A DNA stretch of 64,000 nt, taken from Bdellovibrionota bacterium. Lineage in GTDB: Bacteria; Bdellovibrionota_C; UBA2361; SZUA-149; CAZDWZ01. The stretch spans positions 3,175,541 through 3,239,540 of the forward strand of contig JAXLVP010000001.1 of assembly GCA_046328905.1 (NCBI GenBank), given 5' to 3'. Positions 863 through 60,936 of the stretch are shown one piece after another (position 1 is the stretch's first letter; each line of letters opens with the position of its first letter). The position numbers and the translations under genes were made by a program. A model generated the notes under the pieces. That model saw only the letters and a program-made list of their open reading frames with translations, was not told where the DNA came from and did no database searches.

Positions 863-1842
863 ATGCTTCCGTCCTCGGTGGATGACTGTCGCGCGACCGG
901 CTCGGGTGGCGGCTCCTGAGTGGGTTGAGGAGTTGGCTCGGCCAGCGGGTCTAAGGCCGGTGTTGCCGTAGGTTCGGGTGTGGGCTCTGAACCCGGAGTG
1001 TCCGCCGGGGACGGAGCGGGCGAAGCACCTCCGTTCTGTTTGAGAAGCGTCGAGATCACAAACGCGGTTTGTTCTGCGGTCGGCTCATCGACCGGCGCCA
1101 CGATGCGATAGACACAGTGATCGACATCTTCGATGAATGGGAAATCAACGAGGCCGGTAGCTGTCTGACCGTCTGAGACGGTCACGCCGGAGCCAATCTC
1201 AGTCCAGGGGGCAAATTCGTCGCACGCCCTTACTTCGAGGCGGAACTTCGCTGCTGATCTCGGCAGACCGTCTTCCTTGGCGCTGATGCTTGCGGTGCAA
1301 ATTGTTCCCGGTTCAATCGGCTGGGTTTGGATGATGTCCCGATTGTTCGTGAACGCAGTCGCGCAGGCGCCGACAATCTGTACCGAAAGATCGGTGCTCT
1401 GAATCGCTACCGGCGGCGCCGCCTGATCAACGACGACTTGAACAACAATTGCCGCTGGGTCAACGGGTGTCGCGTCGACTGGCACCGTCGCCGCTTGCTG
1501 ACTCGGTGCAGAGACCTCGAGCTGGATCGTCGAAGGCAGGTTTGTTGACGGGAGCGCGATGACGAAATGTCCGCGAGTATCAGTATTCGATCGCGATGAC
1601 GTTCCCGGAGGCGCAGCATCACCGACATCAACTGTCGCGCCTTCGATTGGGGTTCCTTCGGAGGAAAGAATCCTTCCTTCGATAGTTGTCAGATTCTCGC
1701 CGGTTCCTGTGCCGACTGAACCGCCGCCGCAGCTTGGAAGAAGCAGGAGCGTGAGCGCAAAAGACGCTCCCAAGATTACGCGGACGAGCTGAAGCAATCC
1801 GGCAAAGCGGAGAGCTCTCGGCGGTGGAAAACTGATGTGCAT
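859..1842 (-). CDS. lipoprotein with carboxypeptidase-regulatory-like domain and Pro/Thr/Glu-rich C-terminal tail
   Basis: Signal peptide with lipobox LLLLPSCGG. The motif EGRILSSEGTPIEGATVDV is typical of CarboxypepD_reg-like domains. Low-complexity PT(E)-rich C-terminus. Start moved to the internal ATG at 1842, which has an upstream GGAG. Confidence 0.6.
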   Translation of the reverse strand: MHISFPPPRALRFAGLLQLVRVILGASFALTLLLLPSCGGGSVGTGTGENLTTIEGRILSSEGTPIEGATVDVGDAAPPGTSSRSNTDTRGHFVIALPSTNLPSTIQLEVSAPSQQAATVPVDATPVDPAAIVVQVVVDQAAPPVAIQSTDLSVQIVGACATAFTNNRDIIQTQPIEPGTICTASISAKEDGLPRSAAKFRLEVRACDEFAPWTEIGSGVTVSDGQTATGLVDFPFIEDVDHCVYRIVAPVDEPTAEQTAFVISTLLKQNGGASPAPSPADTPGSEPTPEPTATPALDPLAEPTPQPTQEPPPEPVARQSSTEDGSI

Positions 1843-1952
1843 TGTCTGTAACTCCAGCAAAACAGCCCGCGAAACCGTGGTGGACAAATTACCCATCACA
1901 TGGTAGCTTGGGCGAAGTTGATTGGCAAGGATCCTTCGTCAGAGGTGTCAGT

Positions 1953-2810
1953 ATGGGGCCCCGAATCCGCGTTCAAGACCTTTCGCTTGCGGTGCGAACG
2001 CACCGTCGGGAACAGGACCTGGCTATCGCCGAGGAAGTGATCCATCACGACTGCTATCAGCTGCGTCCGTTGCGAATGGCGCGCAAGCGCATGTCTGTCA
2101 TCCTGGACGTGGGTGGACACATCGGAGCGTTCGGCGTGTTTGCAAAGACCCTGTGGCCGGAAGCATTTCTGGTCGCCGTGGAGCCCAATAAGGAGTCGGC
2201 TGCGCTGTATCGTGAGAATCTCGATCTGAACGGTATCGAGGGTGCGATCGTCCTGGAAGCGGCCCTGAGCTACAATCCCCGCAAGCAGGTCCTCGTCGGC
2301 GACAAACGCTCGACCGGCGGCTGCGTTCTCGTCGATGTCGAGGAGGCGAATCGCCTTCAGACGATTCCGGTCGACCATGAAGCGAACCGGTATCGCGTCA
2401 TCGAACGCGAAGTTCCTACCGTCACTCTCGAACAGATCTTTGATCATCTGAACCTTGACGAAATCTCGCTCATGAAGCTCGATTGTGAGGGGAGTGAATT
2501 TGACCTGTTTCAGGCGGTCTCGGAATCGTGCTCGACGAAAGTGAAGCTGATTCTCGGAGAGTATCATGCGCAGGGCGGTTTTGAGCGGTTCGCTCTCGAC
2601 GCACGCAGAGCGTTCCCACATCTTTATTTCTTCGGGGATTCGCCGCAACACATCGGACCGTTTTGGGCACTGCCTTCGATGTTCTTTGCTGCGCGCTACT
2701 CCTTTGCGCGGCAGTTGAATCGAGCGCGCCGCAAGCTCTTTGTTCGTCCCCGTGAGCCTCAGACTGAAGAGGCATCGACACCTCGGCACGCGCAGCCTGA
2801 GCTGTACTAG
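1953..2810 (+). CDS. FkbM family SAM-dependent methyltransferase
   Basis: Motif ILDVGGHIGAFG (methyltransferase motif I), with length and context matching FkbM-family methyltransferases. ATG at 1953 preceded by GAGGTG. The first ATG at 1842 would overlap the divergent lipoprotein start. Confidence 0.75.
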   Translation: MGPRIRVQDLSLAVRTHRREQDLAIAEEVIHHDCYQLRPLRMARKRMSVILDVGGHIGAFGVFAKTLWPEAFLVAVEPNKESAALYRENLDLNGIEGAIVLEAALSYNPRKQVLVGDKRSTGGCVLVDVEEANRLQTIPVDHEANRYRVIEREVPTVTLEQIFDHLNLDEISLMKLDCEGSEFDLFQAVSESCSTKVKLILGEYHAQGGFERFALDARRAFPHLYFFGDSPQHIGPFWALPSMFFAARYSFARQLNRARRKLFVRPREPQTEEASTPRHAQPELY

Positions 2811-2824
2811 TTCGAAGTACAAGC

Positions 2825-4825
2825 TCATGGCGAGAGCGGCGCTTTTGTTGCCGTCGAAGCGTCCTTTGTCTGCCGTGCTTCCGCCGGTTTGACGCGAAAC
2901 AGCTTGGTTCCACCACTTTCGCTCACGAGCTGAAGCCGGTTCGAGCTCATCCATCTGTCAAAATCCAATTTCATAGCTGGAAAGACAAGATCCGTCCGGA
3001 GCAAGACATACTCGGCCTCTTCGGGGAAAAGCACGACGACGCGTCGATCGCTCACATAGGGGAGCGCGAAATGGGCAGCCGACACGGACGCGTTCGGAGG
3101 AAGGAATGGGAGTACTTTCTGCAGCGGACGGTAATACTCGCTCAGCCTCTGTTCGCGTGAAGCTTCACCCAAGAAGTGCACAGCATTCCAGGTAGAAATG
3201 CGGAAGGCATCATTTGGAACGCATGCTCCGAACTTGGCACTGATGAGGACTGAGGCTGTGAAGCAGAGCGAGGCGGCCGCTCGCGGGAAAAGACCTGTCG
3301 GCAGATACCCACGCTTCACCAGGAGGTCCTGTAAGCGCCGAATACCGTAGGGCAGCAAACCGAACACCAGAGGCGTCAGTGTGACATTGTACTGTGTATA
3401 GAGGGAATACTGGGCGGGCGCGGATGCACAAAAGCACAGGACTGTGCCGTAGAGAAGGACCCAGAGCCGGAATCCGCTGAGAAGCGGTAAGAACAGTACT
3501 GGGCCCAGAAGGAGTGAGAAGAAGAGCAGCTTCTCCGGTTGAAATATCGTTCGCAGCACGAAGACCGGATTCGTTGCCAAGGTCAGGACGAGACCCCTCA
3601 GCCCACCTGGCGGATCGGCGATGAGGGCTCGAAAGCGTTCCGAATAATCAAGAGCCGTGCTGCTCGTTTTCATGAAAACGCCTGGATCGCTCGCCAACAG
3701 CAGCTTGATAGCAACAAAATAAAACATTGAAGCTCCGATCACTGCGCATCCCAAGCGGCGGCGATCCTTCAGATGAAGCAAGGAGAGGCCGAACCCCACG
3801 CAGATGAACGCGGCGTCCTCTCGTGTCGCGAGCGTGAGCAGAAGCATGGCCCAGAAGAAAAACGTTTTGCGGTCTTCGACCGCCCACATCAGCCACAAGA
3901 GCGACGGTGCGATCAGCGTCAATGAGTGGAACTCGTAGAGCAGTGCGCCGTGAATACCGGGATGCAAAAGATAACTTCCGGCGCAAAGAGCTGCTGCCCA
4001 GTCATCGCCGAGAATCCGCTTCGTAAGCTTGAAGAGTGGTATGACGCCGCTCGCGACCCAGACGACCTGAAAGACAACGAGCGCTTCAGGGCCCGGGAAT
4101 GCGAAATGAAATGGTACAAGCAGGGCAAGAATCGGATCAATATGTGCTGAAGCGTGACTGCCTCCGGCGACAAGCGTGCTTTGGAGGAACCGGCCGCGAG
4201 CAGTGTTCCAGATCAGGTTCTCGTACAGAGCGAGGTCGATGGAGGAGACTATTCCAGCTCTTAAGTCGTAGACGGCGATCGTCGCAAGCGCGAGCACCAA
4301 TGCCGTAACGAGAAGAACGAGAAACACCTTTGCCGACCGCGAGCGGCGCGAGATAGGCATCACGGGCTCGAAGGCCGAATTGCGAAAGCATCGCGCCCTG
4401 AGGTGGCATGCGATGACGGCGACGAACGCGGCAATGAGAAGCAATGTGATCCACGGAATCGCGGATTCCATCCGCTGCGTGCCGAGGGCGATACCGAGAG
4501 GAATGAGAAGCAAAAGAATTCCGCGCCGATTGAAGCTTCGTATCGCATCGCGAGCGACAGTTGTTTTCTCTTCGGCGACAGAGATCTTGTGGACCAGCAC
4601 GGTGGCAAACGCGCAAAGCGAAAGCTCCATGGCGAGCAAAATGTCTCGGGCAATCGGTGCCGGACCTGCGTTGGTGAGCATGAAGTAGCCCAGCCCGGGC
4701 TCAAGGAAACGGACCACGAGAAATCCCGGACAAACTGCGAGACACAGCCCCAGAAGCAGCTCGCGAAGACGCAGAATGGGGTCGGGTGGGGAATGCTCGT
4801 CAGAGTGCATAGCGGGGGTGTTCAC
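2825..4825 (-). CDS. polytopic membrane protein, GT-C-like glycosyltransferase candidate (DUF2079-like)
   Basis: 666 aa with about 14 predicted hydrophobic helices followed by a soluble C-terminal domain. Divergently paired with a GT2 polyprenol-phosphate glycosyltransferase. Confidence 0.6.
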   Translation of the reverse strand: MNTPAMHSDEHSPPDPILRLRELLLGLCLAVCPGFLVVRFLEPGLGYFMLTNAGPAPIARDILLAMELSLCAFATVLVHKISVAEEKTTVARDAIRSFNRRGILLLLIPLGIALGTQRMESAIPWITLLLIAAFVAVIACHLRARCFRNSAFEPVMPISRRSRSAKVFLVLLVTALVLALATIAVYDLRAGIVSSIDLALYENLIWNTARGRFLQSTLVAGGSHASAHIDPILALLVPFHFAFPGPEALVVFQVVWVASGVIPLFKLTKRILGDDWAAALCAGSYLLHPGIHGALLYEFHSLTLIAPSLLWLMWAVEDRKTFFFWAMLLLTLATREDAAFICVGFGLSLLHLKDRRRLGCAVIGASMFYFVAIKLLLASDPGVFMKTSSTALDYSERFRALIADPPGGLRGLVLTLATNPVFVLRTIFQPEKLLFFSLLLGPVLFLPLLSGFRLWVLLYGTVLCFCASAPAQYSLYTQYNVTLTPLVFGLLPYGIRRLQDLLVKRGYLPTGLFPRAAASLCFTASVLISAKFGACVPNDAFRISTWNAVHFLGEASREQRLSEYYRPLQKVLPFLPPNASVSAAHFALPYVSDRRVVVLFPEEAEYVLLRTDLVFPAMKLDFDRWMSSNRLQLVSESGGTKLFRVKPAEARQTKDASTATKAPLSP

Positions 4826-4902
4826 GAAGCATTGTCCGGTGCGTTTTTCCTTACATACATGCTAAGGTAGCTGCGCAAAAGGCTAATTCAACTCCCAGGA
4901 CG

Positions 4903-5847
4903 ATGGATTACAGCGTCGTAATTCCGGTATTCAACGAATGCGAATCGCTCCCGGAGCTCCTTCCGGAGCTGTGCTCCGTCCTCTCTGACGTCGGCGGCGA
5001 TTTTGAGATCCTCGTTGTCGATGACGGGTCGACGGATTTTACTCAAGACACTCTCAAGCGGTTGGGTGCATCGATCCCTCAGCTGCGACCGCTCGTGCTC
5101 CGCCGCAGATTCGGGAAGGGCGCAGCCTATGCGGTGGGATTCGCAAACGCGAAGGGAGCTACGTTGCTCACGCTCGATGGAGACCTGCAGGACGATCCGA
5201 AAGAGATCCCTCGGTTCATTGCGAAGCTTGCGGAAGGCTACGATCTCGTGGTCGGCCACAAGGTGAACCGCGCAGAACAAGAACCGATGCGGCGAAAGCT
5301 TTCCGTCGTATTCAACATGCTCGTGAGCCTTGTGTTCGGTGGACGCTACTCCGATTGCGATAGCGGCTTTCGAGCGATGCGTCGGGTCGTCACTGCCGAA
5401 TTACAGACCTATGCGGGGCGATATCGATTCATTCCCGTTTTGGCAGCGCAAGCCGGATATCATGTCTGCGAGATTCCAATCACTCAACGGCGACGAAGGT
5501 TCGGTGAAAGCCGGTACGGAATGAAGCGTCTCTGGACAGGGCTCCTTGACCTGTTCGCTGTTCGGTTTCTTACGGGATTCGATCAGAGCCCGATTCACTT
5601 CTTCGGCTCGATTGGCGGCGTTCTTGCGCTCTGCGGTATTTTCCTTGAAGCCTACGCGGTGTTTTGCAAGCTCGGCGGGGACGCGTTTCGCGTCCACATC
5701 ACTGCCATCGTGCTCGGAGGCTTTCTCGCTCTTGGGGGGCTTCAGTTTGTCTCTCTAGGGCTCATCGGCGAGATGTTCTCGCAACGGTTCCCGAAGCCCG
5801 CGAACCATCTCAAAGACGCAGCGGAAGAGCGAGTAAACGTCGGCTAG
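4903..5847 (+). CDS. GT2 polyprenol-phosphate glycosyltransferase (ArnC/GtrB/DPM1-like)
   Basis: N-terminal VVIPVFNE motif, the FEILVVDDGSTD motif, an LDGDLQD DxD motif, and two C-terminal TM helices. Confidence 0.85.
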   Translation: MDYSVVIPVFNECESLPELLPELCSVLSDVGGDFEILVVDDGSTDFTQDTLKRLGASIPQLRPLVLRRRFGKGAAYAVGFANAKGATLLTLDGDLQDDPKEIPRFIAKLAEGYDLVVGHKVNRAEQEPMRRKLSVVFNMLVSLVFGGRYSDCDSGFRAMRRVVTAELQTYAGRYRFIPVLAAQAGYHVCEIPITQRRRRFGESRYGMKRLWTGLLDLFAVRFLTGFDQSPIHFFGSIGGVLALCGIFLEAYAVFCKLGGDAFRVHITAIVLGGFLALGGLQFVSLGLIGEMFSQRFPKPANHLKDAAEERVNVG

Positions 5848-50067: not shown

Positions 50068-50574
50068 TTATCGCTCGTCAGCAGTCGGCCCATATGCGCT
50101 GGGCACACTCAGGCCGAGCAATCGCAGGTAAACGCTCAACTGACCGCGGTGGTGATACCAGTGGTTGAGCATGATTGTCCGTAGAACTGCGACGCGAGGC
50201 GCCTCCCAGACTGAAACGCCGTCCTTCGTGAATTTGAACGTCTGATGCATCCGTTCATCAGACACGGTCGGAAGCACATCTCGAACTTTTTGCACGGTAT
50301 CTTCCAGGGTCGCGACAATATACGTAGCTGATTGTGGCTGCTCGAAGCGAGATAGGTCTGGGACCTCAGATGAATCTTTTGTCGTCATGAGGAGCACACC
50401 GGCGGGGACCTGAGCGACGTGCAACGCGACCTGTCCCGCGGTCATCGATTTTTCGGCCGGTTTCCAGCTGAGATGCTGATCTGAGAGCCGCTCAAGAAAC
50501 TTCTGCGTGGCAGGTATCTCGCCGTTGAATTCTGAAAGAAAGGCTGCGGCGAGCGTGTTTTGCGTGGTTGACAT
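50068..50574 (-). CDS. DinB/DUF664 family (four-helix bundle metal-binding) protein
   Basis: Size and conserved His pattern (LHVAQVPAG ... HWYHHRGQLSVYLRL) fit the DinB_2 family. Confidence 0.72.
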   Translation of the reverse strand: MSTTQNTLAAAFLSEFNGEIPATQKFLERLSDQHLSWKPAEKSMTAGQVALHVAQVPAGVLLMTTKDSSEVPDLSRFEQPQSATYIVATLEDTVQKVRDVLPTVSDERMHQTFKFTKDGVSVWEAPRVAVLRTIMLNHWYHHRGQLSVYLRLLGLSVPSAYGPTADER

Positions 50575-50586
50575 CGTTTTCTCCGG

Positions 50587-51021
50587 TTACTTCGCTTTTT
50601 TCTCTGCGGCGATCTGTATTTGCTCGAGCATTTGACCCCACCCGCCGGTTACGTCCTTTTCAAGGCCTTCGGCAATGAAGCCGAAAGCTTGATGTGAGAA
50701 CTTCAGCAGCGTGCCGCCGTCCTGCTCAGTGAGCCGATAGATGATATGCGAGGCTACCGGATAGGACATCATCGTCGGCCCGATGAGCTCGAGGAGCTTC
50801 GGCGGCTTGATTGATTGAACGATTCCCCAAAGATGGCCCGTGTTGTTTCCGAGATCACGAAACCACCGCCCGCCCGGCCACGGTTCGAGCTTCATGCTCA
50901 TCTCTTTCATCGGTCCGTGCGGTTCGAGAAGCGTCTCGAAAACAATTTCCGTCGGTGCGGCGATTGTCAGCTCTTTGAAGACCTTCAGGGTCTTGATTTC
51001 CGATAGCGCGTTGTCTGCCAT
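50587..51021 (-). CDS. SRPBCC (AHSA1/polyketide-cyclase-like) domain protein
   Basis: 144 aa with START/Bet v1-like organisation. It is the canonical partner of the adjacent ArsR regulator. Confidence 0.78.
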   Translation of the reverse strand: MADNALSEIKTLKVFKELTIAAPTEIVFETLLEPHGPMKEMSMKLEPWPGGRWFRDLGNNTGHLWGIVQSIKPPKLLELIGPTMMSYPVASHIIYRLTEQDGGTLLKFSHQAFGFIAEGLEKDVTGGWGQMLEQIQIAAEKKAK

Positions 51022-51025
51022 GGCA

Positions 51026-51379
51026 TTATTTTCCTTTTTCTCTATCTCTTACCTTTTTCTCTGCGGCGCTCTTGATTGCCGTGAGGTGATCCGTCCAGAA
51101 GACCTCAAACGTCTTCGCCCAATCGAACAGCGGCTTGAGGCCGGTGGCATCGACTGAGTAGAGCTGTTGCCTACCGTCCCTCTTCACATTCACGAGGCCG
51201 ACCTCTTTCAACACCGCGAGATGTTTCGATACCTGCGGTTGTGTCCAATCGAGCTTCTCGACAAGCGTATTCACGCTGAGCTGGCCACCGGCCAGCACGT
51301 TCAGAATGGCGCGGCGCTTCGGCTCGGCGACTGCGTTGAAGACGTCGAAGGTGGTAGCTGCACGAGCCATGACCTTCAT
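51026..51379 (-). CDS. ArsR/SmtB family transcriptional regulator
   Basis: HTH segment KRRAILNVLAGGQLSVNTLVEKLDWTQPQVSKHLAVLKEVGLV. Start at the internal ATG. Confidence 0.8.
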   Translation of the reverse strand: MKVMARAATTFDVFNAVAEPKRRAILNVLAGGQLSVNTLVEKLDWTQPQVSKHLAVLKEVGLVNVKRDGRQQLYSVDATGLKPLFDWAKTFEVFWTDHLTAIKSAAEKKVRDREKGK

Positions 51380-51796
51380 TATATGCCGATATAGGCATAT
51401 GTCAAGCGGCGCGCTATTTTGGAGGCTAAAACGTGAAAGGGTTGCGTGATGAAGCAACGATGGGCCGGCTCGAGGCTCACAGCCTTGAACCGCCCACGGC
51501 GTACCTCGAAGCTACGCAGCGATAGTTTGGAGAATTGAACGAGAGCTTGGGCGTTTCGGCGTCGGCTGGTTCTGCGAACAAATCCTTCGGACAGCGTGAG
51601 ATCGAACGCGCCTCGACCTGGAAACGGATCGGTTCTGGCGAAATGGGATTGAGCTTGCTTTTCTATGTCTGAGAAACCGGTGTCAAAGAGCACGTGAATG
51701 CGCCGAAACAGGTTCCGTCTATGTAGTTGTGCGGCGCAGATTGTTAGGCAGCCGCGTTTACTAACGACTGTTTACTCGAGGTTTTGATACATTTCT

Positions 51797-52078
51797 ATGA
51801 AAAAACTTATCTCGCTGTGCGCGCTGGCTGCGCTGTATGCGGGTCCCGTCCTTGCCGAATCCCCGGCCGTAAAAACAGACGCTGCAACGACACCTCCCAA
51901 AGCATCTGTTGAAAAAGCAAAAGAAGAAAACGCTGCAGATAAAAAGGTCGAAAAGAAAGAAGTCGATAAGAAGGAAGTTGCAGCAACCAGCGAAGAGTCG
52001 GCAGCGAAAGGTGCTGAACCGACGAAAGCGGCAGGCGAAAAGCCGGTCGAACACACTGAGCACAAAGAGACGAAATAA
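51797..52078 (+). CDS. small secreted Lys/Glu/Ala-rich protein
   Basis: Signal peptide MKKLISLCALAALYAGPVLA followed by a 70-aa low-complexity K/E/A/T-rich region. Followed by a strong terminator. Confidence 0.55.
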   Translation: MKKLISLCALAALYAGPVLAESPAVKTDAATTPPKASVEKAKEENAADKKVEKKEVDKKEVAATSEESAAKGAEPTKAAGEKPVEHTEHKETK

Positions 52079-52090
52079 TTTTTGATGCTC

Positions 52091-52125
52091 CGGCCCGGCA
52101 CGACTGATGCCGGGCCGTTTCGTTT
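52091..52125 (+). terminator. intrinsic terminator
   Basis: Perfect 10-bp GC-rich stem CGGCCCGGCA / TGCCGGGCCG with a 7-nt loop, followed by TTTCGTTT. Confidence 0.6.
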
Positions 52126-52438
52126 ACAATCCATTTCAGTTTCATGGGTTCCGGACGGCGATCTGCCGTTTATCGACACCCCATTCGCACTGTGAGACCG
52201 CGCCCGAAAAGCGCCACTCAGATGTCACATCCCTTCGTGGTCTCAAAGATTGCGAACATGAATGGTTTATTCAAGTAAGGGCCGAGAACGTCGAGAGGGC
52301 ATGCCGAGAGGCTAAACCAGCGCTTTGCAGAATGTCCGCTTCGCCCAAGATCCGAAAATCGCGAGTTCTTCGAGCGCAGAGCGGCATCTAAAATAGATAT
52401 GCCTCACCCAATCGATCGAAGGAGGTCATCTACGTTCT

Positions 52439-53662
52439 ATGGCAGCGCACATTGATCTTAACGAAGAGCGAAAGTTCTCACCAATCTCCGACGTTCAGAG
52501 TCGTTACAAGCTTCTCAACAACCTCGATCGAGTGCTTGGGTGGATTCAGACCGGTGACACTGTGCCGATTCTGATTAATCTCACCTTGACGAATCGCTGC
52601 ACGCACAAGTGCCCGATGTGCACGTCGAAAGACCTTCTCGACGACCGGACCGCCCCGCTCGAGAGAGTGAAGGAGATTATCACAGAGCTCAAATCCCTTG
52701 GTGTGAAAGCGTTTGGACTGGGTGGCGGCGGAGACCCGACGTGTCATCCTCATTTTGAGGAAGTGATCAGATTCATCGGCGAGCAGGGCATGGAAGTTGG
52801 CATCACGACCAACGGACAGCTTCTTACGCCGGGAATCATCGCTGCGGCGGTCGAGCACTGCACCTGGATGCGTGTCAGCCTCGATGCCGACTGTCCCGAG
52901 ACCTATCGAAAGGTTCACGGATTGGGACAGGCAGAGTTTGAGCAGGTGAAGCAAAACGTACGCGCTCTTGTCGCGGAAAAGAAGCGTCAGGGAAGCTCGG
53001 TAGCGCTGGGCGCGACCTATCTCCTCGGTCAGCACACATTAGACGGCGCTTATGGAGCAACTGCGCTCGCTCGGGAGCTCGGCGTAGACTATATGCGCCT
53101 GCGGCCGTTTTTTATCTGGCAAACAGGGAAGGGAAAAAAGGACGCTGAAACTCAGCTTGTTGAGCTGGAACGAAAGCGAACAGGGGGCCGCTCATTCGAT
53201 GAGAAACGTGCCGGCGGAGATGAATTCTTTGCCGGAGCGGCTGCGGAGCTCGAGCGCTGCAAGACTCTGGAGACAGATTCATTCTCCGTGTCGTTTCCTG
53301 AGGCGCGAGTGAATCGCAAGGAAGAGTTGAAAAAGCGGGTTCACCGCTGCTGCTCCGTTCATCACTTTACAGTAGTTATCGCCGCCGATCTGAATGTCTA
53401 TCCGTGCTGTATGTTGGAAGACACGCCGAAGTACGTGTTGGGCAATCTAAAGAACCAAAGCTTTCGAGAGATGTGGGAGTCTTCACAACGCCGCGACGCG
53501 TGCTCACGTATCGATTTTTCCGACTGTCCGAACCCGTGCATGCTCGAAAACCACAATGAGTTATTGTGGGAGCTTCGGGAAGGGCAGCTTCGCAGCGACA
53601 CGAAGCTTTCAGATATCCTCGATGCTACTCGGACCAAGATTCCGCACGCGAACTTTTTATAA
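52439..53662 (+). CDS. radical SAM protein with C-terminal SPASM domain (peptide/protein maturase-like)
   Basis: The CTHKCPMC motif (CxxxCxxC) follows an LINLTLTNRC beta-strand. A GGGGDP glycine-rich SAM motif is present. C-terminal Cys cluster CCSVHH..VYPCCMLED..GNL..SFREMWES..DACSRIDFSDCPNPC is typical of SPASM/twitch auxiliary Fe-S domains. RBS AAGGAGG. Confidence 0.85.
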   Translation: MAAHIDLNEERKFSPISDVQSRYKLLNNLDRVLGWIQTGDTVPILINLTLTNRCTHKCPMCTSKDLLDDRTAPLERVKEIITELKSLGVKAFGLGGGGDPTCHPHFEEVIRFIGEQGMEVGITTNGQLLTPGIIAAAVEHCTWMRVSLDADCPETYRKVHGLGQAEFEQVKQNVRALVAEKKRQGSSVALGATYLLGQHTLDGAYGATALARELGVDYMRLRPFFIWQTGKGKKDAETQLVELERKRTGGRSFDEKRAGGDEFFAGAAAELERCKTLETDSFSVSFPEARVNRKEELKKRVHRCCSVHHFTVVIAADLNVYPCCMLEDTPKYVLGNLKNQSFREMWESSQRRDACSRIDFSDCPNPCMLENHNELLWELREGQLRSDTKLSDILDATRTKIPHANFL

Positions 53663-53911: not shown

Positions 53912-54238
53912 TTAAGCCTTGTCGTAAGCGCGCATCGCCATCGTTCCGTGGACTGCGGCAGCGCTTGAGCGCAACGCGGCGGCAAGGAAGATTGCCTCTG
54001 TTACTTCTTGCTTGGTTGCACCGACCTCCTTCGCTGCGGCGGCGTGAACGTCAATGCAGTAAGGACACTGCGTCGTATGTGCTACTGCAATTGCTATCAA
54101 CTCGCGGTACTTTCGCGGAATTGCACCGTCTTCTCGGCCCACCAATTGGTCGAGGTTCCACCACGCGGAAAAGCCCTCGGGCGCCAGTTCTTTCATCTCC
54201 GCAAGTTGCTTGAGATCATTCTTGTCGTTGTAATACAT
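53912..54238 (-). CDS. carboxymuconolactone decarboxylase/AhpD-like family protein
   Basis: The HTTQCPYCIDVH motif (CxxC..H of AhpD-like core). Start at the internal ATG, with strong RBS AGGAGGAAGAGT-ATG. Confidence 0.8.
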   Translation of the reverse strand: MYYNDKNDLKQLAEMKELAPEGFSAWWNLDQLVGREDGAIPRKYRELIAIAVAHTTQCPYCIDVHAAAAKEVGATKQEVTEAIFLAAALRSSAAAVHGTMAMRAYDKA

Positions 54239-54368
54239 ACTCTTCCTCCTCATTCGGGACAGTTTTCGTCTCCCTCTCACTCTAGTCTCGGGTAGCTTGA
54301 ACTGCGAGAGCGTTGTATAGAGCCTACGTTCGGACTTATTGACGATTCGTTCAGGATGCGTGTGAGTT

Positions 54369-55328
54369 ATGGGCAAGCCTCAAAGCAATCCCGCCGAAGA
54401 TGCGCTCAGCGCATTCGTGTCCCAGCTCGGATTGCGTAGCAGCGTGCTCGGCCGAGTCGGTTTGGTCGCCCCGTGGGGTCTCCATATGTCGGCGTCCAAG
54501 GAGATGATGTTCCACGTCATCCTTCGCGGGGAGTGCTACTACCGCATATCGGGTCGGAGACAGCAGATGGCGAAGCTCGGAGCTGGAGACCTCGTCCTGT
54601 TTCCGCACGGGTCCGCACACGCTCTTGCGAGTGGACCTCGATGCAAGCTCGTTCCCTCCGCGCGTGTTTGTTACACGACAACCACGATTCACGGTGACCG
54701 ATTCCAGACGGGAGCGGGAAAGAAGACCGAGATGATCTGCGGAAGCTTTGCTATTCGCGGTCCGCACGCGGCGCTCCTCTCCGGCACACTTCCGCATGTA
54801 ATCAAATTCGACGGCGACGCGGCTGAGCGCGATCGATGGATTTGCTCAACTCTCGATTTGATCGCGCATGAGGTTTCGCGGCGTGCGGACGGTTCGGACC
54901 GACTTATCCAACAGCTTCTCGATGCGCTGTTCATACAGATTCTGCGGTCGTGTTCCAATTCGCTTGCAACGCGAAACCGGGGCGTCTTCGCGGCGCTGAA
55001 GGACCCTGCGATAATGAAGGTGTTGAGCCGAATAAGCGGCGATTACGCAAGACCTTGGACGATTGAGGATCTTGCGCGAGATGCAGGATTGTCGCGCACC
55101 GCGCTTGCTGTACGATTTCAGTCGCTCTTTGGAGAAGGCGTCGCTTCGTTCCTGAGGCATCAACGGATTTCAACGGCTCGTCGTCTGCTCGTTGGAAGCA
55201 AACTGTCGATCAAGGAGATCGCGCACAAGGTTGGCTTCACCAGTCCGGAGGTATTTATCCGCAACTTTGAGCGAGCAGAAGGAGTGTCGCCCAGACGTTT
55301 CCGCCTGAGCGCAGAGGATGGAAGTTGA
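54369..55328 (+). CDS. AraC family transcriptional regulator (cupin N-domain + HTH)
   Basis: C-terminal dual HTH (WTIEDLARDAGLSRTALAVRF ... IKEIAHKVGFTSPEVFIRNF). Divergent from the AhpD-like gene. Confidence 0.8.
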   Translation: MGKPQSNPAEDALSAFVSQLGLRSSVLGRVGLVAPWGLHMSASKEMMFHVILRGECYYRISGRRQQMAKLGAGDLVLFPHGSAHALASGPRCKLVPSARVCYTTTTIHGDRFQTGAGKKTEMICGSFAIRGPHAALLSGTLPHVIKFDGDAAERDRWICSTLDLIAHEVSRRADGSDRLIQQLLDALFIQILRSCSNSLATRNRGVFAALKDPAIMKVLSRISGDYARPWTIEDLARDAGLSRTALAVRFQSLFGEGVASFLRHQRISTARRLLVGSKLSIKEIAHKVGFTSPEVFIRNFERAEGVSPRRFRLSAEDGS

Positions 55329-55437: not shown

Positions 55438-55806
55438 CTACAGCTCCACAATCGTCTTGAATCCGGCGTAAGACATCCGTTTGACATCAAAGGGCATCTT
55501 CATCGTGAGCATTTTGCTCATCCACTTGTCATTCATCACGGCCGCGTTGACTTTGTCGCGGTGGGCTTTCGAACGATAGACGATCCATGAGAATATTACG
55601 GTATCTGTCTTCTTGAGCTTCGTGAGCTTGGGAAAGGGAACGCCCATCGGTGTTCCCATATCGTCGCCGACACATTCGTAATATTGAATCGCACCGTGGT
55701 CCATCCAGACTTTGCCGGCCGCTTTTGCGATGCGCCGGTATGAGGCCACTTGCTTCTTTGCGATGGGAATAACGAAGCCGTCAACGTATGCCATGACATT
55801 CTCCAA
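55438..55806 (-). CDS. DUF1428 (YbaA-like) family protein
   Basis: MAYVDGFVIPI... is the hallmark N-terminus of DUF1428. Roughly 120 aa. Confidence 0.68.
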   Translation of the reverse strand: MENVMAYVDGFVIPIAKKQVASYRRIAKAAGKVWMDHGAIQYYECVGDDMGTPMGVPFPKLTKLKKTDTVIFSWIVYRSKAHRDKVNAAVMNDKWMSKMLTMKMPFDVKRMSYAGFKTIVEL

Positions 55807-56153
55807 GAATGGTTGCCTGTATCAAGATAAATTTGTTTACACAGGTCGATGACGTTTCGAAAAGAGCAAAAGAGTACTGGTATTCCGCTGATGTGTTCCC
55901 AATTTGCTTCAGCGCGGGATTCTCGATATCCTCCATGCTCCCTCGCGTGCTCTTTGTCCCATCTCGCAATCTCTTCCAGTATCAACTTTTGTCCTCAATC
56001 ATCCGGCGACGTACGCGATGTTTGAGGAAGAACGGAATCAGGTTTTTGGGAAGCTTTGTTGCTTCAATCGCTCCTCGGAGAGCGATTGAAGCAGCCAAGC
56101 TTCGTAGGTTTGGCGAATGTCGATTCACTCTTTCACAGTGGGGTTCGACGACG

Positions 56154-56720
56154 ATGAGTGGGCTTTTGCAACGCGGTCTCTCCCTGGATGCGCCGGACGG
56201 CTACGTCAGATTCGCCCCGGGTCACGACCCGAGCTGGATCGGAGAAGTGTCGGCCACAGCGCCTGTCCACGGCCGGATTCGCCTTGACCCTCGATTCCAC
56301 GTCGGCGCGAGTGGCATCTCGCTTCGCGTCAACGCGCCCATCGGCACCGAACGCGACGACCCGGATCGCGATGCGATCGTGTTCCGGTCCAACCGCACGG
56401 GCGCCGTTGCCGGCAGTCTGGCGGTCGAGCTCAATCAGCCGGCTTCTGGGTTCACGTACGACGATCGAACCCAATCCGGCGTCGGCGACAAGGTCGTGAT
56501 CCTCGAACACGACCTCGGCGACCGGTGGCTCCGGGTCGAAGTGCGCGGTCGTGCGAACTTCAACGGGTGGACGCTCGTCATCCGTGGCGTCGAGCCCGGC
56601 CAGATCGAGCTTACCCGCGTTCAATGCGGAGTCCACGTGGTCGCCTCCGTGCAGCACGGGATGACGCCGCCGCCGTCGGTGCGCGAGCTCGTGGTTGTGA
56701 TCGAGGAGCGCCCTGACTGA
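56154..56720 (+). CDS. hypothetical protein in locally GC-elevated segment
   Basis: 188 aa from the first ATG. High-GC third positions on this strand. The competing antisense ORF is R/D-rich and looks less coding. Confidence 0.45.
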   Translation: MSGLLQRGLSLDAPDGYVRFAPGHDPSWIGEVSATAPVHGRIRLDPRFHVGASGISLRVNAPIGTERDDPDRDAIVFRSNRTGAVAGSLAVELNQPASGFTYDDRTQSGVGDKVVILEHDLGDRWLRVEVRGRANFNGWTLVIRGVEPGQIELTRVQCGVHVVASVQHGMTPPPSVRELVVVIEERPD

Positions 56721-56835
56721 TTCGCTCGGGCGGTTTCACGTGCCCGGGTGAGGGGAGACAAGTGCTCCCCTCACCGGCACGCAATGGAAAAGCCGTTCTT
56801 CCTCAATCTCGATTGGACGTCGCGCGGAGAGAAGC

Positions 56836-57312
56836 TCAGTGATTCTTCTTCATCTGTGCGAAGAATTCTTCGGCACCTTTCTTCATCTCGTCTTTCGACA
56901 GATCTTTCTGATGGGTGGATACCATCCAGGTGTATCCGAAGGGATCCACGAGGCTGCCGGCGCGATCGCCCCAGAACATGTCACCCATCGGCATCATGAC
57001 CTTTGCTCCCGCTTCGATAGCCTGATTGAACAGCGAGTCGGCATCTTCAACGTAAATGCAGAGAGTGATTGGAGTTGCGCCCAATGTTTCGGCGCTCTTG
57101 CAACTCTGCTCGGGCGGTTCGTCGCCCATCATAATCATCGAGTTGCCGATCTGCATTACCGCGTGCATGACGCCTTTGCCGTGAGGTGCATCAAATACAT
57201 TTAGTACCTTCGCTCCAAGTGCTTTACTGTAGAACTCGAGAGCACGTCGGGAGTCTTTGAATGTGAGGCTGGGAGTGACGGAATGGTAGCCGTCGGGAAT
57301 AGGTTTTGTCAT
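56836..57312 (-). CDS. VOC family (glyoxalase/bleomycin resistance/PhnB-like) protein
   Basis: Size and beta-alpha-beta-beta-beta pattern of VOC proteins. Internal ATG with RBS AAAGGAGA. Confidence 0.78.
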   Translation of the reverse strand: MTKPIPDGYHSVTPSLTFKDSRRALEFYSKALGAKVLNVFDAPHGKGVMHAVMQIGNSMIMMGDEPPEQSCKSAETLGATPITLCIYVEDADSLFNQAIEAGAKVMMPMGDMFWGDRAGSLVDPFGYTWMVSTHQKDLSKDEMKKGAEEFFAQMKKNH

Positions 57313-57619
57313 CTTCGGTCTCCTTTCATGTGAGCTTCGGAGATAGTATGTGCGTACGACTGGAGGCATGACTAAGCGCATACTCTGCAGTCGATGGGCG
57401 GCGATGAACAGGTTGGTTAAACGTCGGAGGTCACGTAGAACTGGTGCGCATGCTGCTCAGCCTTGGTCAGCCGAGACGAATGTACGCGAAATAACACGGA
57501 GCGGCGGTTCCCAAACCTTGGCCGGCTCCGTGGCTGTGCGTGTCCAAATGTGGCTACACACGCGCATTTCGAGCAGTGGCTGAACCTCCTTTCTCACTCA
57601 TCGTGCGGTGTTTCGCGCA

Positions 57620-58570
57620 TCATTGTTTTGATGCCTTCTCCGCAATCTCGAGCATGGCCAAATACAGCTCCTCCAGCACGGAGGTCGTTTGGCCATGGGC
57701 TTCGAGCATCGGCCACGGAAGGTTGATCGGCGGACGCCGGCCGGACTTCCCGCGCACTTCGATAGCGCGGTCCATCTCGCGATCCGCGGTGTCGAGCACC
57801 GATTGTTTGAGCCGAACCGCCTGGGTGCCGTCGAGCTCGACGACCTCGAAGCAATCCGGATCGCGGAAACCCCACGGACTGTGCCGCGCACCGAGGATGG
57901 CTTCGATCACGCCTTCGTTGCGAGCCGGGGAGGAGATGGTTGCACCGCCGCCGGTCGTCATGAAAACGAGGACCTCCGCGTGCTCGCCCAGAAGGCCGAG
58001 CAGCTTGATGAGCGGGATCGACTGGCGTGCGATCTCGAACGGAGACCCACTGGGGGCTGCGTTCTCCGCGACGGACACGACGAGCACAACCAGCTCAGCG
58101 AGGAGCGCGAACCGAAGCCGAAGCTCGTGGGCAATGAAGTCGCCGAGGTATGCGTCCCCCAGCAGCCAGCTGATGGCTTGGTTGATCCCCTTGTAGCGCT
58201 CCGGACTCTGCTGCGTTGCCACGCGAATGCCCGCGCGCATGGTTTGGAACCACGCATCGCCGAGTGCGTTTTTGAAGGCTTGTGTGTTGCGTGGCCCCGC
58301 GAGGGCGGTCATCGTCCGCGTCGTGGGGAAGCCGATGCGCTTGGGATCGTCCACAGTGCGGAGCCCGAACAGCTCGGGGCGATCACGTCGCCATGGTCCG
58401 ACCGACGACCACGCCTCCTCGTACAACTGCACGAGGTAGCGGTGGACGTCGGCGGCGTAATAGTCCACGGTGCGCTCCGGAATCCGAGAGAGATCTGGAG
58501 CGTTCTTCCCATCGCGTGGGCAGTGGCCGAACTTGCCGACCAGCCGCTGAAACAAGTCTTCATGGAACAT
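57620..58570 (-). CDS. hypothetical protein (possible EreA/ChaN/TraB-superfamily-like, unconfirmed)
   Basis: 316 aa from the internal ATG. Protein-like composition, whereas the antisense 370-aa ORF is R-rich. GC-elevated segment. Confidence 0.5.
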   Translation of the reverse strand: MFHEDLFQRLVGKFGHCPRDGKNAPDLSRIPERTVDYYAADVHRYLVQLYEEAWSSVGPWRRDRPELFGLRTVDDPKRIGFPTTRTMTALAGPRNTQAFKNALGDAWFQTMRAGIRVATQQSPERYKGINQAISWLLGDAYLGDFIAHELRLRFALLAELVVLVVSVAENAAPSGSPFEIARQSIPLIKLLGLLGEHAEVLVFMTTGGGATISSPARNEGVIEAILGARHSPWGFRDPDCFEVVELDGTQAVRLKQSVLDTADREMDRAIEVRGKSGRRPPINLPWPMLEAHGQTTSVLEELYLAMLEIAEKASKQ

Positions 58571-58941
58571 TGGTGTGTCCCTAACCTGGGGAACCGACAC
58601 ATTCCGCGAAGAGAGCGCGAGGCACGTAACGCAGCTTGTGCAGGATTGCGGGAGAACTTCGAAGGGGAGAGAGCGCCAAACAGGGTGAGCGCGCATTTTA
58701 GCGTAAAATTGGAGGGAAATCCAAATCGAGCCTCGGGCTGTCTGGCTACTCAGCTGATACGATTGGAACCCCAGTCCGGCGGGTTAGAGGTAGTGGGGTA
58801 GGAGGGGCTGCATGTAAGCGCTAACCTGCTGTTAGATTCGACTCCGCTTCCACAGACCGCCATGTCAGACCGATATCGGGACGAAGTGCTTGACCTTTTT
58901 AGCTAAAGTTCTGCGCCAAAGTCTAATGAGTGCGCGTGCTC

Positions 58942-59424: not shown

Positions 59425-60936
59425 ATGGTGTCCTCTACTCTTGACGCTCCGGAACTCGCTGTACCGGACGCGGCTCTGACTGTCGCTCAACGTTTTCTTA
59501 AGCAATCTGTAATTCCGGCTCTGGTCGGTGGAAAGCCCGAGCTCGGTTCGTACAGCGGAACTTTTAAAGTCTTCGATCCGGGAAATACCTCGGAACCGAT
59601 CGCCACCGTCGCGCTGATGGATGGTGCCGACGTTAATCGTGCCGCGGAACAGGCGCTTAAAGCATTTCAGAAGACTGATTGGGCGCGCATGACGCCGTCG
59701 AAACGGTCGGAGCTGCTGCATCGATATGCCGACAAGATTCACGAGCTGCGTGAAGTCGTCGCAGCGCTCGAGACGCTGGAGGCAGGCAAGATCTACGAGC
59801 AGTCGCTGGGTTGCGTCGACAACTGCGTCACAACGCTCCGCTACTATGCGGATCTCGCCGCCAATTTCGGTTGGACCTCACCGGTGGAAGGCTGTGAAGT
59901 TGCGCATTACGCGCACTACCAGCCATCGGGCGTGTGCGGTCTGATCATTCCGTGGAACTTCCCGGTTATACTTTACGGATGGGGAGTCGCGCCGGCGCTT
60001 GCCGCTGGTAACACGGTGGTCATTAAGCCCGCAGAAAACACTCCGATTGCGACGCTCTACCTCGCGAGCCTCGCCAGCCAAGCCGGAATTCCGGACGGGG
60101 TGATCAACGTGGTTCCTGGCTTCGGCCGGGATGCAGGCGCGGCGTTGGCGGCCAATCCGAATCTCGGTCACATGCGATTCACGGGCAGCCCGGGAGTTGC
60201 AGCGGCCGTCGGAATGGCATGTGCGCAGAACCATGTCCCATTCGCGAGCGAAGCAGGCGGGAAAGGTGCGGCCTATGTCGCGGAAGATGCGGATGTGGAA
60301 GCTGCTGCCAAGAACTTGGCCGCCGCGATCACATTCCACGCCGGACAGGTCTGTTGTACGGCAACACGCATCGTGCTGCATCGCAGCGTGGCGGACGCGT
60401 TCCTCGACAAATATCTTACGGCGGTGAAAACCGTGAAAATCGGTCATCCGATGCACAAAGGCACCGAGATGGGACCGCTGGTGAGTGAGGTGCAACGCCA
60501 ACGCGTGTTGGGCTATGTCAACCGAATCCGTCCGCGCGGCAACTTCCTGCTCGAAGGCGCCGCCGTCGAATCTGCCGAAGGGATGCCCGGCTGCTATGTC
60601 TCGCCGTGTATCTTCGAAGCGCCGGTCGACCACGCCGCCAACCAAGAAGAGATCTTCGGACCCATGGCCGGCGTCCTCCGTGTCGGCAGCGACGAGGAAG
60701 CGACACGTGTCGTGAACTCGTCCAAGTATGGTCTGTCGAATTCGATCTTCACCGCAGATCCCGAACGCTACCTGGCCCTCGCGAAAGCGCAACGTGTCGG
60801 AAACGTCTGGCACAACGCACACAACGTCTTCGCACCGGGCCTGCACTACGGGGGCGTAGGCATCTCCGGTAACGCCGGCGTGAATTCGATCGACACGATG
60901 CTGCAGACCTGCCTGCGTTCGTCGATCATGGCGTAG
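59425..60936 (+). CDS. aldehyde dehydrogenase family protein
   Basis: GQVCCTATRIVLH catalytic Cys region, the EAGGKG variant of ELGGKS, PWNFPV, and VIKPAENTP. Confidence 0.85.
   Translation: MVSSTLDAPELAVPDAALTVAQRFLKQSVIPALVGGKPELGSYSGTFKVFDPGNTSEPIATVALMDGADVNRAAEQALKAFQKTDWARMTPSKRSELLHRYADKIHELREVVAALETLEAGKIYEQSLGCVDNCVTTLRYYADLAANFGWTSPVEGCEVAHYAHYQPSGVCGLIIPWNFPVILYGWGVAPALAAGNTVVIKPAENTPIATLYLASLASQAGIPDGVINVVPGFGRDAGAALAANPNLGHMRFTGSPGVAAAVGMACAQNHVPFASEAGGKGAAYVAEDADVEAAAKNLAAAITFHAGQVCCTATRIVLHRSVADAFLDKYLTAVKTVKIGHPMHKGTEMGPLVSEVQRQRVLGYVNRIRPRGNFLLEGAAVESAEGMPGCYVSPCIFEAPVDHAANQEEIFGPMAGVLRVGSDEEATRVVNSSKYGLSNSIFTADPERYLALAKAQRVGNVWHNAHNVFAPGLHYGGVGISGNAGVNSIDTMLQTCLRSSIMA

Follow-up and report, generated by a model that had tools for sequence, protein, structure and literature searches.

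A stand-alone radical SAM gene of a Bdellovibrionota genome and the nucleotide-sugar gene clusters of its relatives

The window analysed here is a stretch of 64,000 nucleotides (nt) from contig JAXLVP010000001.1 of a Bdellovibrionota bacterium, and the gene in question, at 52439-53662 on the plus strand, encodes an enzyme of the radical SAM type (SAM, S-adenosylmethionine) with 407 amino acids (aa). At NCBI, the protein (MFN8391411.1, on a 3.26-Mb contig) bears the title 'MAG: radical SAM protein [Bdellovibrionota bacterium]', where MAG stands for metagenome-assembled genome, and the label 'radical SAM protein' is correct. An earlier note on this DNA had taken the gene for a stand-alone maturase of proteins or of peptides that ribosomes synthesise and that are modified post-translationally (RiPPs), with a substrate perhaps encoded in trans. 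Relatives of the protein, however, almost always lie inside sugar-building gene clusters, and an activated sugar is therefore favoured over a peptide as the substrate. With a probability of about 60%, the gene may thus be an orphaned member of a group of carbohydrate-tailoring radical SAM enzymes and not a peptide or protein maturase, a reading held with more confidence for the homologues embedded in such clusters than for the window copy. The protein itself is uncharacterised and, in so large a superfamily of enzymes, a fairly ordinary case.

Genomic contexts of homologues

For homologues that share 50% identity or more with the window protein, 12 distinct contexts could be read, and all 12 have nucleotide-sugar genes within a few genes of the radical SAM gene. 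Among the closer relatives (28-87% identity), a core sugar gene lies within four genes in 15 of 17 distinct loci from GTDB and from look-up, and the same holds for 31 of 52 loci of the wider family when crude cluster labels are used; both fractions are undercounts, because glycosyltransferase family 2 (GT2) and unannotated clusters were left out of the labels. The individual contexts, named after the homologous protein (P) or locus (L), are as follows.

P0002 (closest homologue, 87% identity): Methyltransf_24 and SIS proteins directly downstream
P0003 (73% identity): DegT and SDR genes in divergent orientation
P0006: TPR protein, GT4 glycosyltransferase, HldE-like kinase/nucleotidyltransferase, SIS protein
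P0008, P0012 and P0017: C-methyltransferases, SDRs, radical SAM and B12-dependent radical SAM proteins, HldE-like protein, NTP-transferase
P0010: epimerase, TIGR04324 oxygenase, 144-aa protein, CDP-OH_P_transf, phosphonate-like gene set
P0011, one side: SDR, second radical SAM/SPASM protein, sugar C-methyltransferase (Methyltransf_13/14), DegT, formyltransferase, TIGR04372 glycosyltransferase
P0011, after the radical SAM gene: TPR protein, two flagellins, TPR+GT41 protein
P0013 and P0016: PfkB+SIS fusion, nucleotidyltransferase+HAD-IIIA fusion; further RmlD-like epimerases, zinc-dependent alcohol dehydrogenase (Zn-ADH), methyltransferases, C-methyltransferase
L014 (51% identity, archaeal MAG): RmlD-like epimerase, TIGR04324-type oxygenase cluster, 142-aa partner, CDP-OH_P_transf
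L087 (52% identity): TIGR04372-type glycosyltransferase, transketolase C-terminal subunit, methyltransferase, Zn-ADH

Heptose genes of the GmhA, HldE and GmhB kind are often among them. The two fusion proteins beside P0013 and P0016 find their best NCBIfam matches in RfaE domains I and II, GmhA and GmhB, all below the equivalog cutoffs, and these are the four activities that make nucleotide-activated glycero-manno-heptose. A GmhB-like phosphatase (154 bits, cutoff 178) is encoded directly downstream among the contexts of P0008, P0012 and P0017. In addition, distant members of ~30-35% identity from Omnitrophota and Elusimicrobiota adjoin a GT9 heptosyltransferase (PF01075, E 4e-31) and a GT4 glycosyltransferase.

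A recurring module of four genes, seen at L004, L012, L014, L061 and on the P0017 contig, joins the radical SAM gene with three others. They encode an epimerase similar to RmlD, an oxygenase that reaches 200 bits with TIGR04324, 'sporadic carbohydrate cluster 2OG-Fe(II) oxygenase' (cutoff 150; 2OG, 2-oxoglutarate), and a TIGR04323-like protein of ~143 aa, which scores 23.8 bits and stays under its cutoff of 55. The module stands beside relatives of 36-54% identity in either orientation (L004 4845-8230, L012 5788-9230, L014 5777-9293). At L012, the genes upstream of the homologue (338-5731) encode a thiamine diphosphate-dependent decarboxylase, an iron-containing alcohol dehydrogenase, a 517-aa radical SAM/SPASM protein, a cytidylate-kinase-like protein and a CDP-alcohol phosphatidyltransferase, a set resembling phosphonate or polyol-phosphate head-group biosynthesis.

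Two further arrangements were observed. In one clade of 55-56% identity (L003 6001-13206, L084, L088 28-9089), the radical SAM gene lies just upstream of flagellin genes, an adjacency to flagellin that L084 and L088 share with P0011. Several TPR+GT41 (OGT-like) proteins of 700-780 aa are encoded in the same clade, and the whole resembles a flagellin glycosylation island. At L015-L021, L061, L087, L090 and L092, archaeal and bacterial alike, a split transketolase (N- and C-terminal subunits) and a Zn-ADH recur near family members, together with a 220-aa methyltransferase and a small cytidylyl/adenylyltransferase; this gene group could be a supply route for a heptose precursor or a CDP-alditol.

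When 134 proteins encoded within four genes at 21 non-redundant loci were pooled, the Pfam families included 14 NAD epimerases/dehydratases, 13 RmlD_sub_bind, 10 GDP_Man_Dehyd, 8 sugar C-methyltransferases, 23 methyltransferases, 9 other radical SAM proteins, 4 GT2 and 3 DegT. No peptide-related family is among the top 25 of this pool, and no recurring small-peptide gene was found beside homologues in the contexts read. The comparison of homologue neighbourhoods that the earlier note had proposed as a check consistently returned nucleotide-sugar and glycosylation clusters, and in none of them does a small-peptide gene recur next to the homologues. It thus essentially turned against the note's own proposal and leaves the maturase reading unsupported.

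The radical SAM core and the integrity of the gene

The coding sequence (CDS) and the features recognised in it are given below, all on the plus strand.

52421-52426: Shine-Dalgarno sequence AGGAGG, 12 nt 5' of the ATG
52439-53662: radical SAM enzyme CDS, 407 aa (MFN8391411.1)
52598-52621: CxxxCxxC motif (C54, C58, C61), ligands of the SAM-cleaving [4Fe-4S] cluster
52721-52738: GGGGDP, a putative 'GGE'-type SAM-binding motif, by comparison with the known radical SAM GGE motif
53123-53263: low-confidence insert, residues ~229-275, placed by the gap pattern in the homologue alignment (A1)
53351-53539: half-SPASM, 'twitch'-like domain (C305, C323, C324, C363, C367)
53645-53659: C-terminal tail H-A-N-F-L, with H403, N405 and F406 invariant in closer relatives

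The start codon at 52439 is called correctly, because the N-terminus aligns with that of every close homologue and has the shared 'MAxHIDL' start. Pfam Radical_SAM (PF04055) matches residues 49-183 with 70.8 bits against a cutoff of 29.5, and the protein has the partial TIM-barrel fold of the superfamily, so that the description of the open reading frame (ORF) as a radical SAM gene with a CxxxCxxC motif in the earlier note holds. The three Cys of this motif are invariant in alignment A1 and kept in 195 of 198 family sequences that were aligned to a family profile. Likewise, G96, G97, G98, D99 and P100 are all invariant in A1; across the 198 sequences, residue 99 is Glu in 126 and Asp, as in the window protein, in 72. 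The GGE motif has been described in DesII (PMC11434129). The insert at residues ~229-275 is present in the bacterial long form and missing from the forms of ~350 aa in archaea, Elusimicrobia and Omnitrophota. Conserved features of the family are a half-SPASM domain with five Cys, an N-terminal helix SxYKLLxxLDR and a C-terminal HxNF tail, of which the H-A-N-F-L version is found in about one-third of the wider family as aligned.

The window protein retains every family-invariant residue, and comparison with the 87%-identical homologue gives a dN/dS of 0.044, at a saturated dS of ~2.5. The gene is intact, under strong purifying selection and not decaying. Its GC content is that of the surroundings, and a horizontal-transfer signature was rejected for this reason.

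The C-terminal half-SPASM domain

The C-terminal domain matches Pfam SPASM (PF13186) with 37.1 bits (cutoff 21.5) over residues 305-356, covering profile positions 1-51 of 67 only. The match to TIGR04085, a check proposed in the earlier note, comes to 23.4 bits and falls just under the cutoff of 27, again for the first part of the profile only (positions 1-47 of 93). Conservation of the Cys residues was counted in the 198 family sequences: C305 is kept in 195, C323 in 195, C324 in 170, C363 in 184 and C367 in 189. C363 and C367 form a CX3C pair, and the CX2CX5CX3C block of the seven-Cys SPASM motif is absent from the aligned sequences. As true SPASM enzymes owe their second auxiliary cluster to this block, that cluster was judged to be missing. 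With four to five conserved Cys and no CX2CX5CX3C block, the domain reads as half a SPASM domain of the twitch-like kind, in which C305, C323, C324, C363 and C367 are probably the ligands of one auxiliary Fe-S cluster. Its four near-universal Cys plus C324 agree with a shortened SPASM domain of about 3-4 Cys with a beta-hairpin after the core, and the AlphaFold2 model places a beta-hairpin at residues 311-321, followed by helices. The score of 15.9 bits for NF033640 (N_Twi_rSAM), against 170, puts the window protein outside that subfamily.

The SPASM-type Cys cluster described in the earlier note is therefore half right: the Cys-bearing domain is real, and the full motif is not there. The three Cys counted after 'EMWES' are C349, C363 and C367, and the first of these is not conserved among family sequences. 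The absence of an RRE was noted correctly; neither Pfam nor NCBIfam gives a match to RRE/PqqD, and only ~45 residues precede the radical SAM core.

Family membership, size and distribution

No NCBIfam model comes near its cutoff for the window protein. TIGR04317 comes highest, with 80 bits where 380 are required. Among the maturases of peptides, WgkB (63 against 650), ScmE (51 against 400), MftC (49 against 265) and PqqE (39 against 381) are all far off, as are the DesII model TIGR04426 (28.9 against 450), the viperin model NF038283 (45 against 180), the MoaA models TIGR02666 and TIGR02668 (46 against 325 and 39 against 284) and the AhbD model (47 against 500, aligned over residues 46-351). 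An anaerobic sulfatase-maturating enzyme was rejected on the low score of the C-terminal domain with TIGR03942 (15.1 bits against 349) and a Cys complement that is too small; no sulfatase is among the best 25 of the 49 Pfam families in the window. A maturase of tungsten-cofactor oxidoreductases was also rejected, with TIGR04317 under its cutoff and no AOR gene among those best 25 of 49 window families or among the top neighbour families of the homologues.

Among 5.8 billion proteins, a word-indexed search found only 73 matches, 18 of which are the 'long form' of ~400 aa with 50-87% identity. Searching 1.84 billion 50%-identity representatives with a profile returned 2,073 clusters at E<=1e-30, mostly of 330-370 aa, and the long form makes up one single 50% cluster. 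In the GTDB species representatives, where the best match has 51% identity, 70 family loci were found, all in MAGs, from Elusimicrobiota, Omnitrophota, Planctomycetota, Kiritimatiellota and DPANN archaea (e.g., Woesearchaeota and Nanoarchaeota). The family, with about 2,000 clusters at 50% identity, is uncharacterised and has been observed only in archaea of the DPANN type and in bacteria without cultured representatives. No characterised relative was found in the searchable literature on radical SAM enzymes with heptose, nucleotide sugar or flagellin glycosylation.

The radical SAM domain of the family is also found inside giant multidomain proteins, namely P0147 (6428 aa; residues 5359-5648), P0143 (2955), P0134 (1927), P0097 (1631), P0154 (1444) and P0177 (1431). 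Two family members stand in tandem in a Nanoarchaeia MAG (L065 6959-9050). At many loci of Elusimicrobiota and Omnitrophota (e.g., L040, L045, L048, L053), as many as five additional radical SAM paralogues, more distantly related, are encoded within four genes. The source labels of P0005 and P0025, 'cyclic pyranopterin phosphate synthase' and 'Coenzyme PQQ synthesis protein E', are probably over-annotations, given the MoaA and PqqE scores of the window protein.

Predicted fold and comparison with characterised enzymes

The structure was predicted with AlphaFold2 from an alignment of 23 sequences, giving a pLDDT of 82.4 and a pTM of 0.84. The model is weak only at the termini and at residues 229-250, inside the bacterial insert, where pLDDT is below 50. 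By fold, BlsE and DesII (the latter with a Foldseek E of 4e-15) match best, with SkfB and SuiB close behind; since these two peptide-modifying enzymes rank so near to BlsE and DesII, the fold leaves the substrate class unsettled.

BlsE, the cytosylglucuronate decarboxylase of blasticidin S biosynthesis (PDB 7vob), shares 19% identity with the window protein, and the sequence match covers the radical SAM core only. Moreover, BlsE serves a nucleoside antibiotic pathway, while the homologue clusters show no evident uronate or decarboxylation logic. The similarity in fold to DesII, the TDP-4-amino-4,6-dideoxy-D-glucose deaminase (PDB 8hzv/8hzy), is real at an identity of 15-17%. However, DesII is reported with a single [4Fe-4S] cluster, no mention of an auxiliary one, and an N-terminal domain of six helices (PMC11434129), whereas in the window family 4-5 Cys are conserved near the C-terminus and the N-terminal part amounts to one short helix. 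At L003, furthermore, the amino sugar appears to be formylated instead of losing its amino group by elimination as with DesII.

Like the window protein, the twitch-domain dehydrogenases BtrN and SpeY (PDB 4m7s and 7wzv) combine a radical SAM core with a shortened SPASM domain. They hold a single auxiliary [4Fe-4S] cluster bound by four Cys, act on sugar-like small molecules and have no peptide-recognition domain, and by analogy their mechanism is the most likely one for the window enzyme. In contrast, PqqE, SkfB, SuiB, CteB and anaerobic sulfatase-maturating enzyme differ from the window protein, which has no RRE, no CX2CX5CX3C block or second auxiliary cluster and no precursor gene, and whose homologues have a carbohydrate and not a peptide context. 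Finally, the 'sporadic carbohydrate cluster' (TIGR04323, TIGR04324) is linked to the family by position: homologues of 52-54% identity have as their direct neighbours an oxygenase of TIGR04324, a 143-aa protein similar to TIGR04323 and an RmlD-like epimerase, with TIGR04372 glycosyltransferases nearby. These are families of the context; the radical SAM protein itself has no curated model.

Boundaries of the gene and candidate local substrates

The elements on either side of the gene are listed below.

51797-52078, plus: Lys/Glu-rich ORF of 93 aa, hypothetical protein U0136_14060 at NCBI (preceding locus tag)
52091-52117, plus: hairpin like an intrinsic terminator (stem of 10 pairs, 9 of them G-C; 7-nt loop), then TTTCGTTTAC
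52107-52391, plus: mini-ORF, 94-aa frame in the leader, non-conserved
52118-52438, plus: leader of about 320 nt with the Shine-Dalgarno sequence and the mini-ORFs
52144-52278, plus: mini-ORF, 44-aa frame in the leader containing MSHPFVVSKIANMNGLFK, non-conserved
53886-53865, minus: terminator-like hairpin of the CMD gene
53912-54376, minus: carboxymuconolactone-decarboxylase-family (CMD) gene, convergent, Pfam CMD E=1.1e-20, the downstream boundary

The upstream hairpin has the T-run TTTCGTTT directly 3' of the stem-loop and closes the upstream transcription unit. With this terminator on one side and, on the other, a convergent gene that has a hairpin of its own, the radical SAM gene is monocistronic, as the earlier note had held. 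The CMD gene is unrelated to it.

The small frames near the gene that had been put forward as substrate candidates do exist. Yet the Lys/Glu-rich ORF, a singleton at 90% clustering without a Pfam family, is a mere neighbour with no link to the radical SAM gene, and the terminator stands between the two; by eye, the N-terminus of its product looks like a signal peptide (MKK, a hydrophobic stretch, VLA|E). By tblastn in 103 homologue loci, nothing better than E=1.2 was found for this ORF, and a conserved precursor in it or in the 18/44-aa and 94-aa mini-ORFs was rejected, with a best E=0.06 over these loci. Having no counterpart there, the frames lose their standing as candidates. Comparison of the leader and the downstream spacer with related loci by blastn gave only chance words of 14-16 nt, and the leader shows no similarity to the region upstream of the 87%-identical homologue. 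There is, in sum, no evidence for a local substrate, and no credible substrate gene lies beside the radical SAM gene, in agreement with the earlier note.

Within the leader, no sigma-70-like promoter was found. A riboswitch or otherwise structured leader was rejected on the grounds that Rfam gives no match at E<=1 and that the fold z-score of -0.16 indicates no excess of structure.

Missing partner genes in the window

Small stress and regulatory genes flank the radical SAM gene: ArsR, AHSA1 and DinB genes follow one another on the minus strand, and the CMD gene forms a divergent pair with an AraC (Cupin_6) gene. The neighbours were assigned as follows.

50068-50574, minus: DinB (Pfam)
50587-51021, minus: AHSA1 (Pfam)
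51026-51457, minus: ArsR (Pfam)
54369-55328, plus: AraC/Cupin_6 (Pfam)
55438-55806, minus: DUF1428 (Pfam)
56836-57381, minus: Glyoxalase (Pfam)
59425-60936, plus: Aldehyde dehydrogenase (Pfam)

The flanking stress and regulatory genes (50068-51457, 53912-55328) are all without counterparts in the neighbourhoods of the homologues. Synteny with the 87%- and 73%-identical homologues is confined to the CDS, and the DNA similarity to the former ends at the CDS ends. Partner genes were sought by tblastn of ~950 proteins encoded next to homologues against the 64-kb window, which returned only the radical SAM gene, a GT2 gene (at 4.9 kb), a formyltransferase-like gene (40.9 kb) and an unrelated gene (17.7 kb). 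The 61 ORFs of the window, taken by the best 25 of their 49 Pfam families, include no epimerase, DegT, SIS, PfkB or NTP-transferase gene; for epimerases, the difference from the homologue neighbours has a Fisher p=0.004. Genes of TIGR04323, TIGR04324 and TIGR04372 are absent from the window as well. The window copy therefore stands without any partner sugar gene within 64 kb.

Among the same best 25 families, the only glycan-type ones are GT2 and a GH5 cellulase. The GT2 glycosyltransferase (4903-5847, plus; E 3e-27) adjoins a DUF2079 membrane protein (2825-4825, minus; E 3e-46), and this pair lies 47 kb from the radical SAM gene. Farther downstream, GC content rises to 0.60-0.665 at 56200-56800 and 57400-58600 over a background of ~0.55, and these stretches have long ORFs on both strands (55809-56720 plus with 56133-56657 minus; 57689-58801 plus with 57620-58696 minus); the product of 57620-58696 has no Pfam match.

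Proposed function and alternative explanations

As an enzyme tailoring activated sugars, the protein would cleave SAM reductively to a 5'-deoxyadenosyl radical, and this radical would abstract hydrogen from one of the carbons in a nucleotide-activated sugar, for which a heptose, or a deoxy or amino sugar derived from it, is the likeliest candidate. The single auxiliary cluster may then accept an electron to give a keto-sugar, as in BtrN and SpeY, or may instead support an epimerisation or dehydration. A keto-sugar would suit the C-methyltransferases, aminotransferases and reductases encoded alongside the homologues. The pathway's methyltransferases, aminotransferases, reductases and glycosyltransferases would then take over the product, and the end point would be a glycan of the cell surface, be it LPS-like (LPS, lipopolysaccharide), of the S-layer or of flagellin. 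In this Bdellovibrionota genome, the gene would have split off from such a cluster and be transcribed alone, with its partners elsewhere in the genome. As to the type of reaction, oxidation is given the largest rough weight and is itself tentative; epimerisation and something else share the next place, and dehydration or deamination comes last.

A bolder version of this proposal, which is possible and on balance unlikely, has the family carry out a radical chemistry on nucleotide-activated heptoses or higher sugars that resembles no characterised enzyme, with the lone window copy perhaps recruited to a non-glycan substrate. It could be, for example, a new C-H functionalisation or a skeletal change feeding flagellin, S-layer or LPS glycans, and it could be placed in the uncultured phyla Elusimicrobiota, Omnitrophota, DPANN archaea and Bdellovibrionota.

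The isolation of the window copy may also mean that it is a displaced member of the family with a different small-molecule substrate, or one heading for loss, in which case the sugar deduced from its homologues would not be transferable. The lack of a partner gene within 64 kb, the unrelated stress and regulatory neighbours (ArsR, AHSA1, DinB, CMD, AraC, DUF1428, glyoxalase) and flanks that have nothing in common with those of the 87%-identical homologue fit this explanation, which nonetheless seems rather improbable against a dN/dS of 0.044, the retention of all invariant residues, a good Shine-Dalgarno sequence, a terminator-bounded unit of its own and a GC content like that of the surroundings. 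Bacterial sugar pathways are, besides, frequently divided over several loci. A RiPP or protein maturase of the anaerobic sulfatase-maturating, PqqE, MftC or AlbA-like type, with its substrate in trans, in the Lys/Glu-rich protein or in a mini-ORF, is more doubtful still. The maturase models score far under their cutoffs, an RRE is missing, the seven-Cys SPASM motif is incomplete and the homologues sit in sugar clusters without a recurring neighbour family of the peptide type; moreover, neither the mini-ORFs nor the Lys/Glu-rich ORF, which is on the far (upstream) side of the terminator, has homologues in the 103 related loci.

Two further classes of enzyme were weighed against carbohydrate tailoring. 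Action on a free nucleotide, as by viperin (an antiviral ddhNTP synthase) or MoaA (a GTP cyclase), is suggested by a PADLOC pVip match (E 2e-15), by the presence of both among the PDB sequence and fold matches and by the 'cyclic pyranopterin phosphate synthase' label from JGI on one homologue. Such a role is nevertheless very unlikely, as the matches reach no farther than the radical SAM core (for pVip, positions 2-116 of the 257 in the profile), the viperin and MoaA scores are low and neither defence nor molybdopterin genes stand beside the homologues. Viperins are also not known to have an auxiliary-cluster domain, which counts further against a viperin-like enzyme. Anti-phage defence was accordingly rejected for the pVip match, which is one at the level of the core only. 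Least probable of all is a maturase of a cofactor or tetrapyrrole, either for a tungsten enzyme or AhbD/NirJ-like: TIGR04317 is the best NCBIfam match and AhbD aligns over most of the protein, yet both scores are a fraction of their cutoffs, and no AOR or heme-d1/Ahb genes are among the families listed for the window or beside the homologues.

Implications

Once the homologue contexts are read, the puzzle of an orphan maturase has largely gone. For genome mining, a radical SAM gene with a SPASM hit and no neighbour is not to be equated with an orphan RiPP maturase until the contexts of its homologues have been checked. The window locus itself is a poor entry point to the pathway, because the partner genes are missing there. 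If the proposed function is correct, the family would add a further uncharacterised branch to the radical SAM/twitch enzymes acting on activated sugars as tailoring enzymes, and its reaction could add a step to the chemistry of heptoses and deoxysugars and help to read the surface-glycan clusters of candidate phyla.

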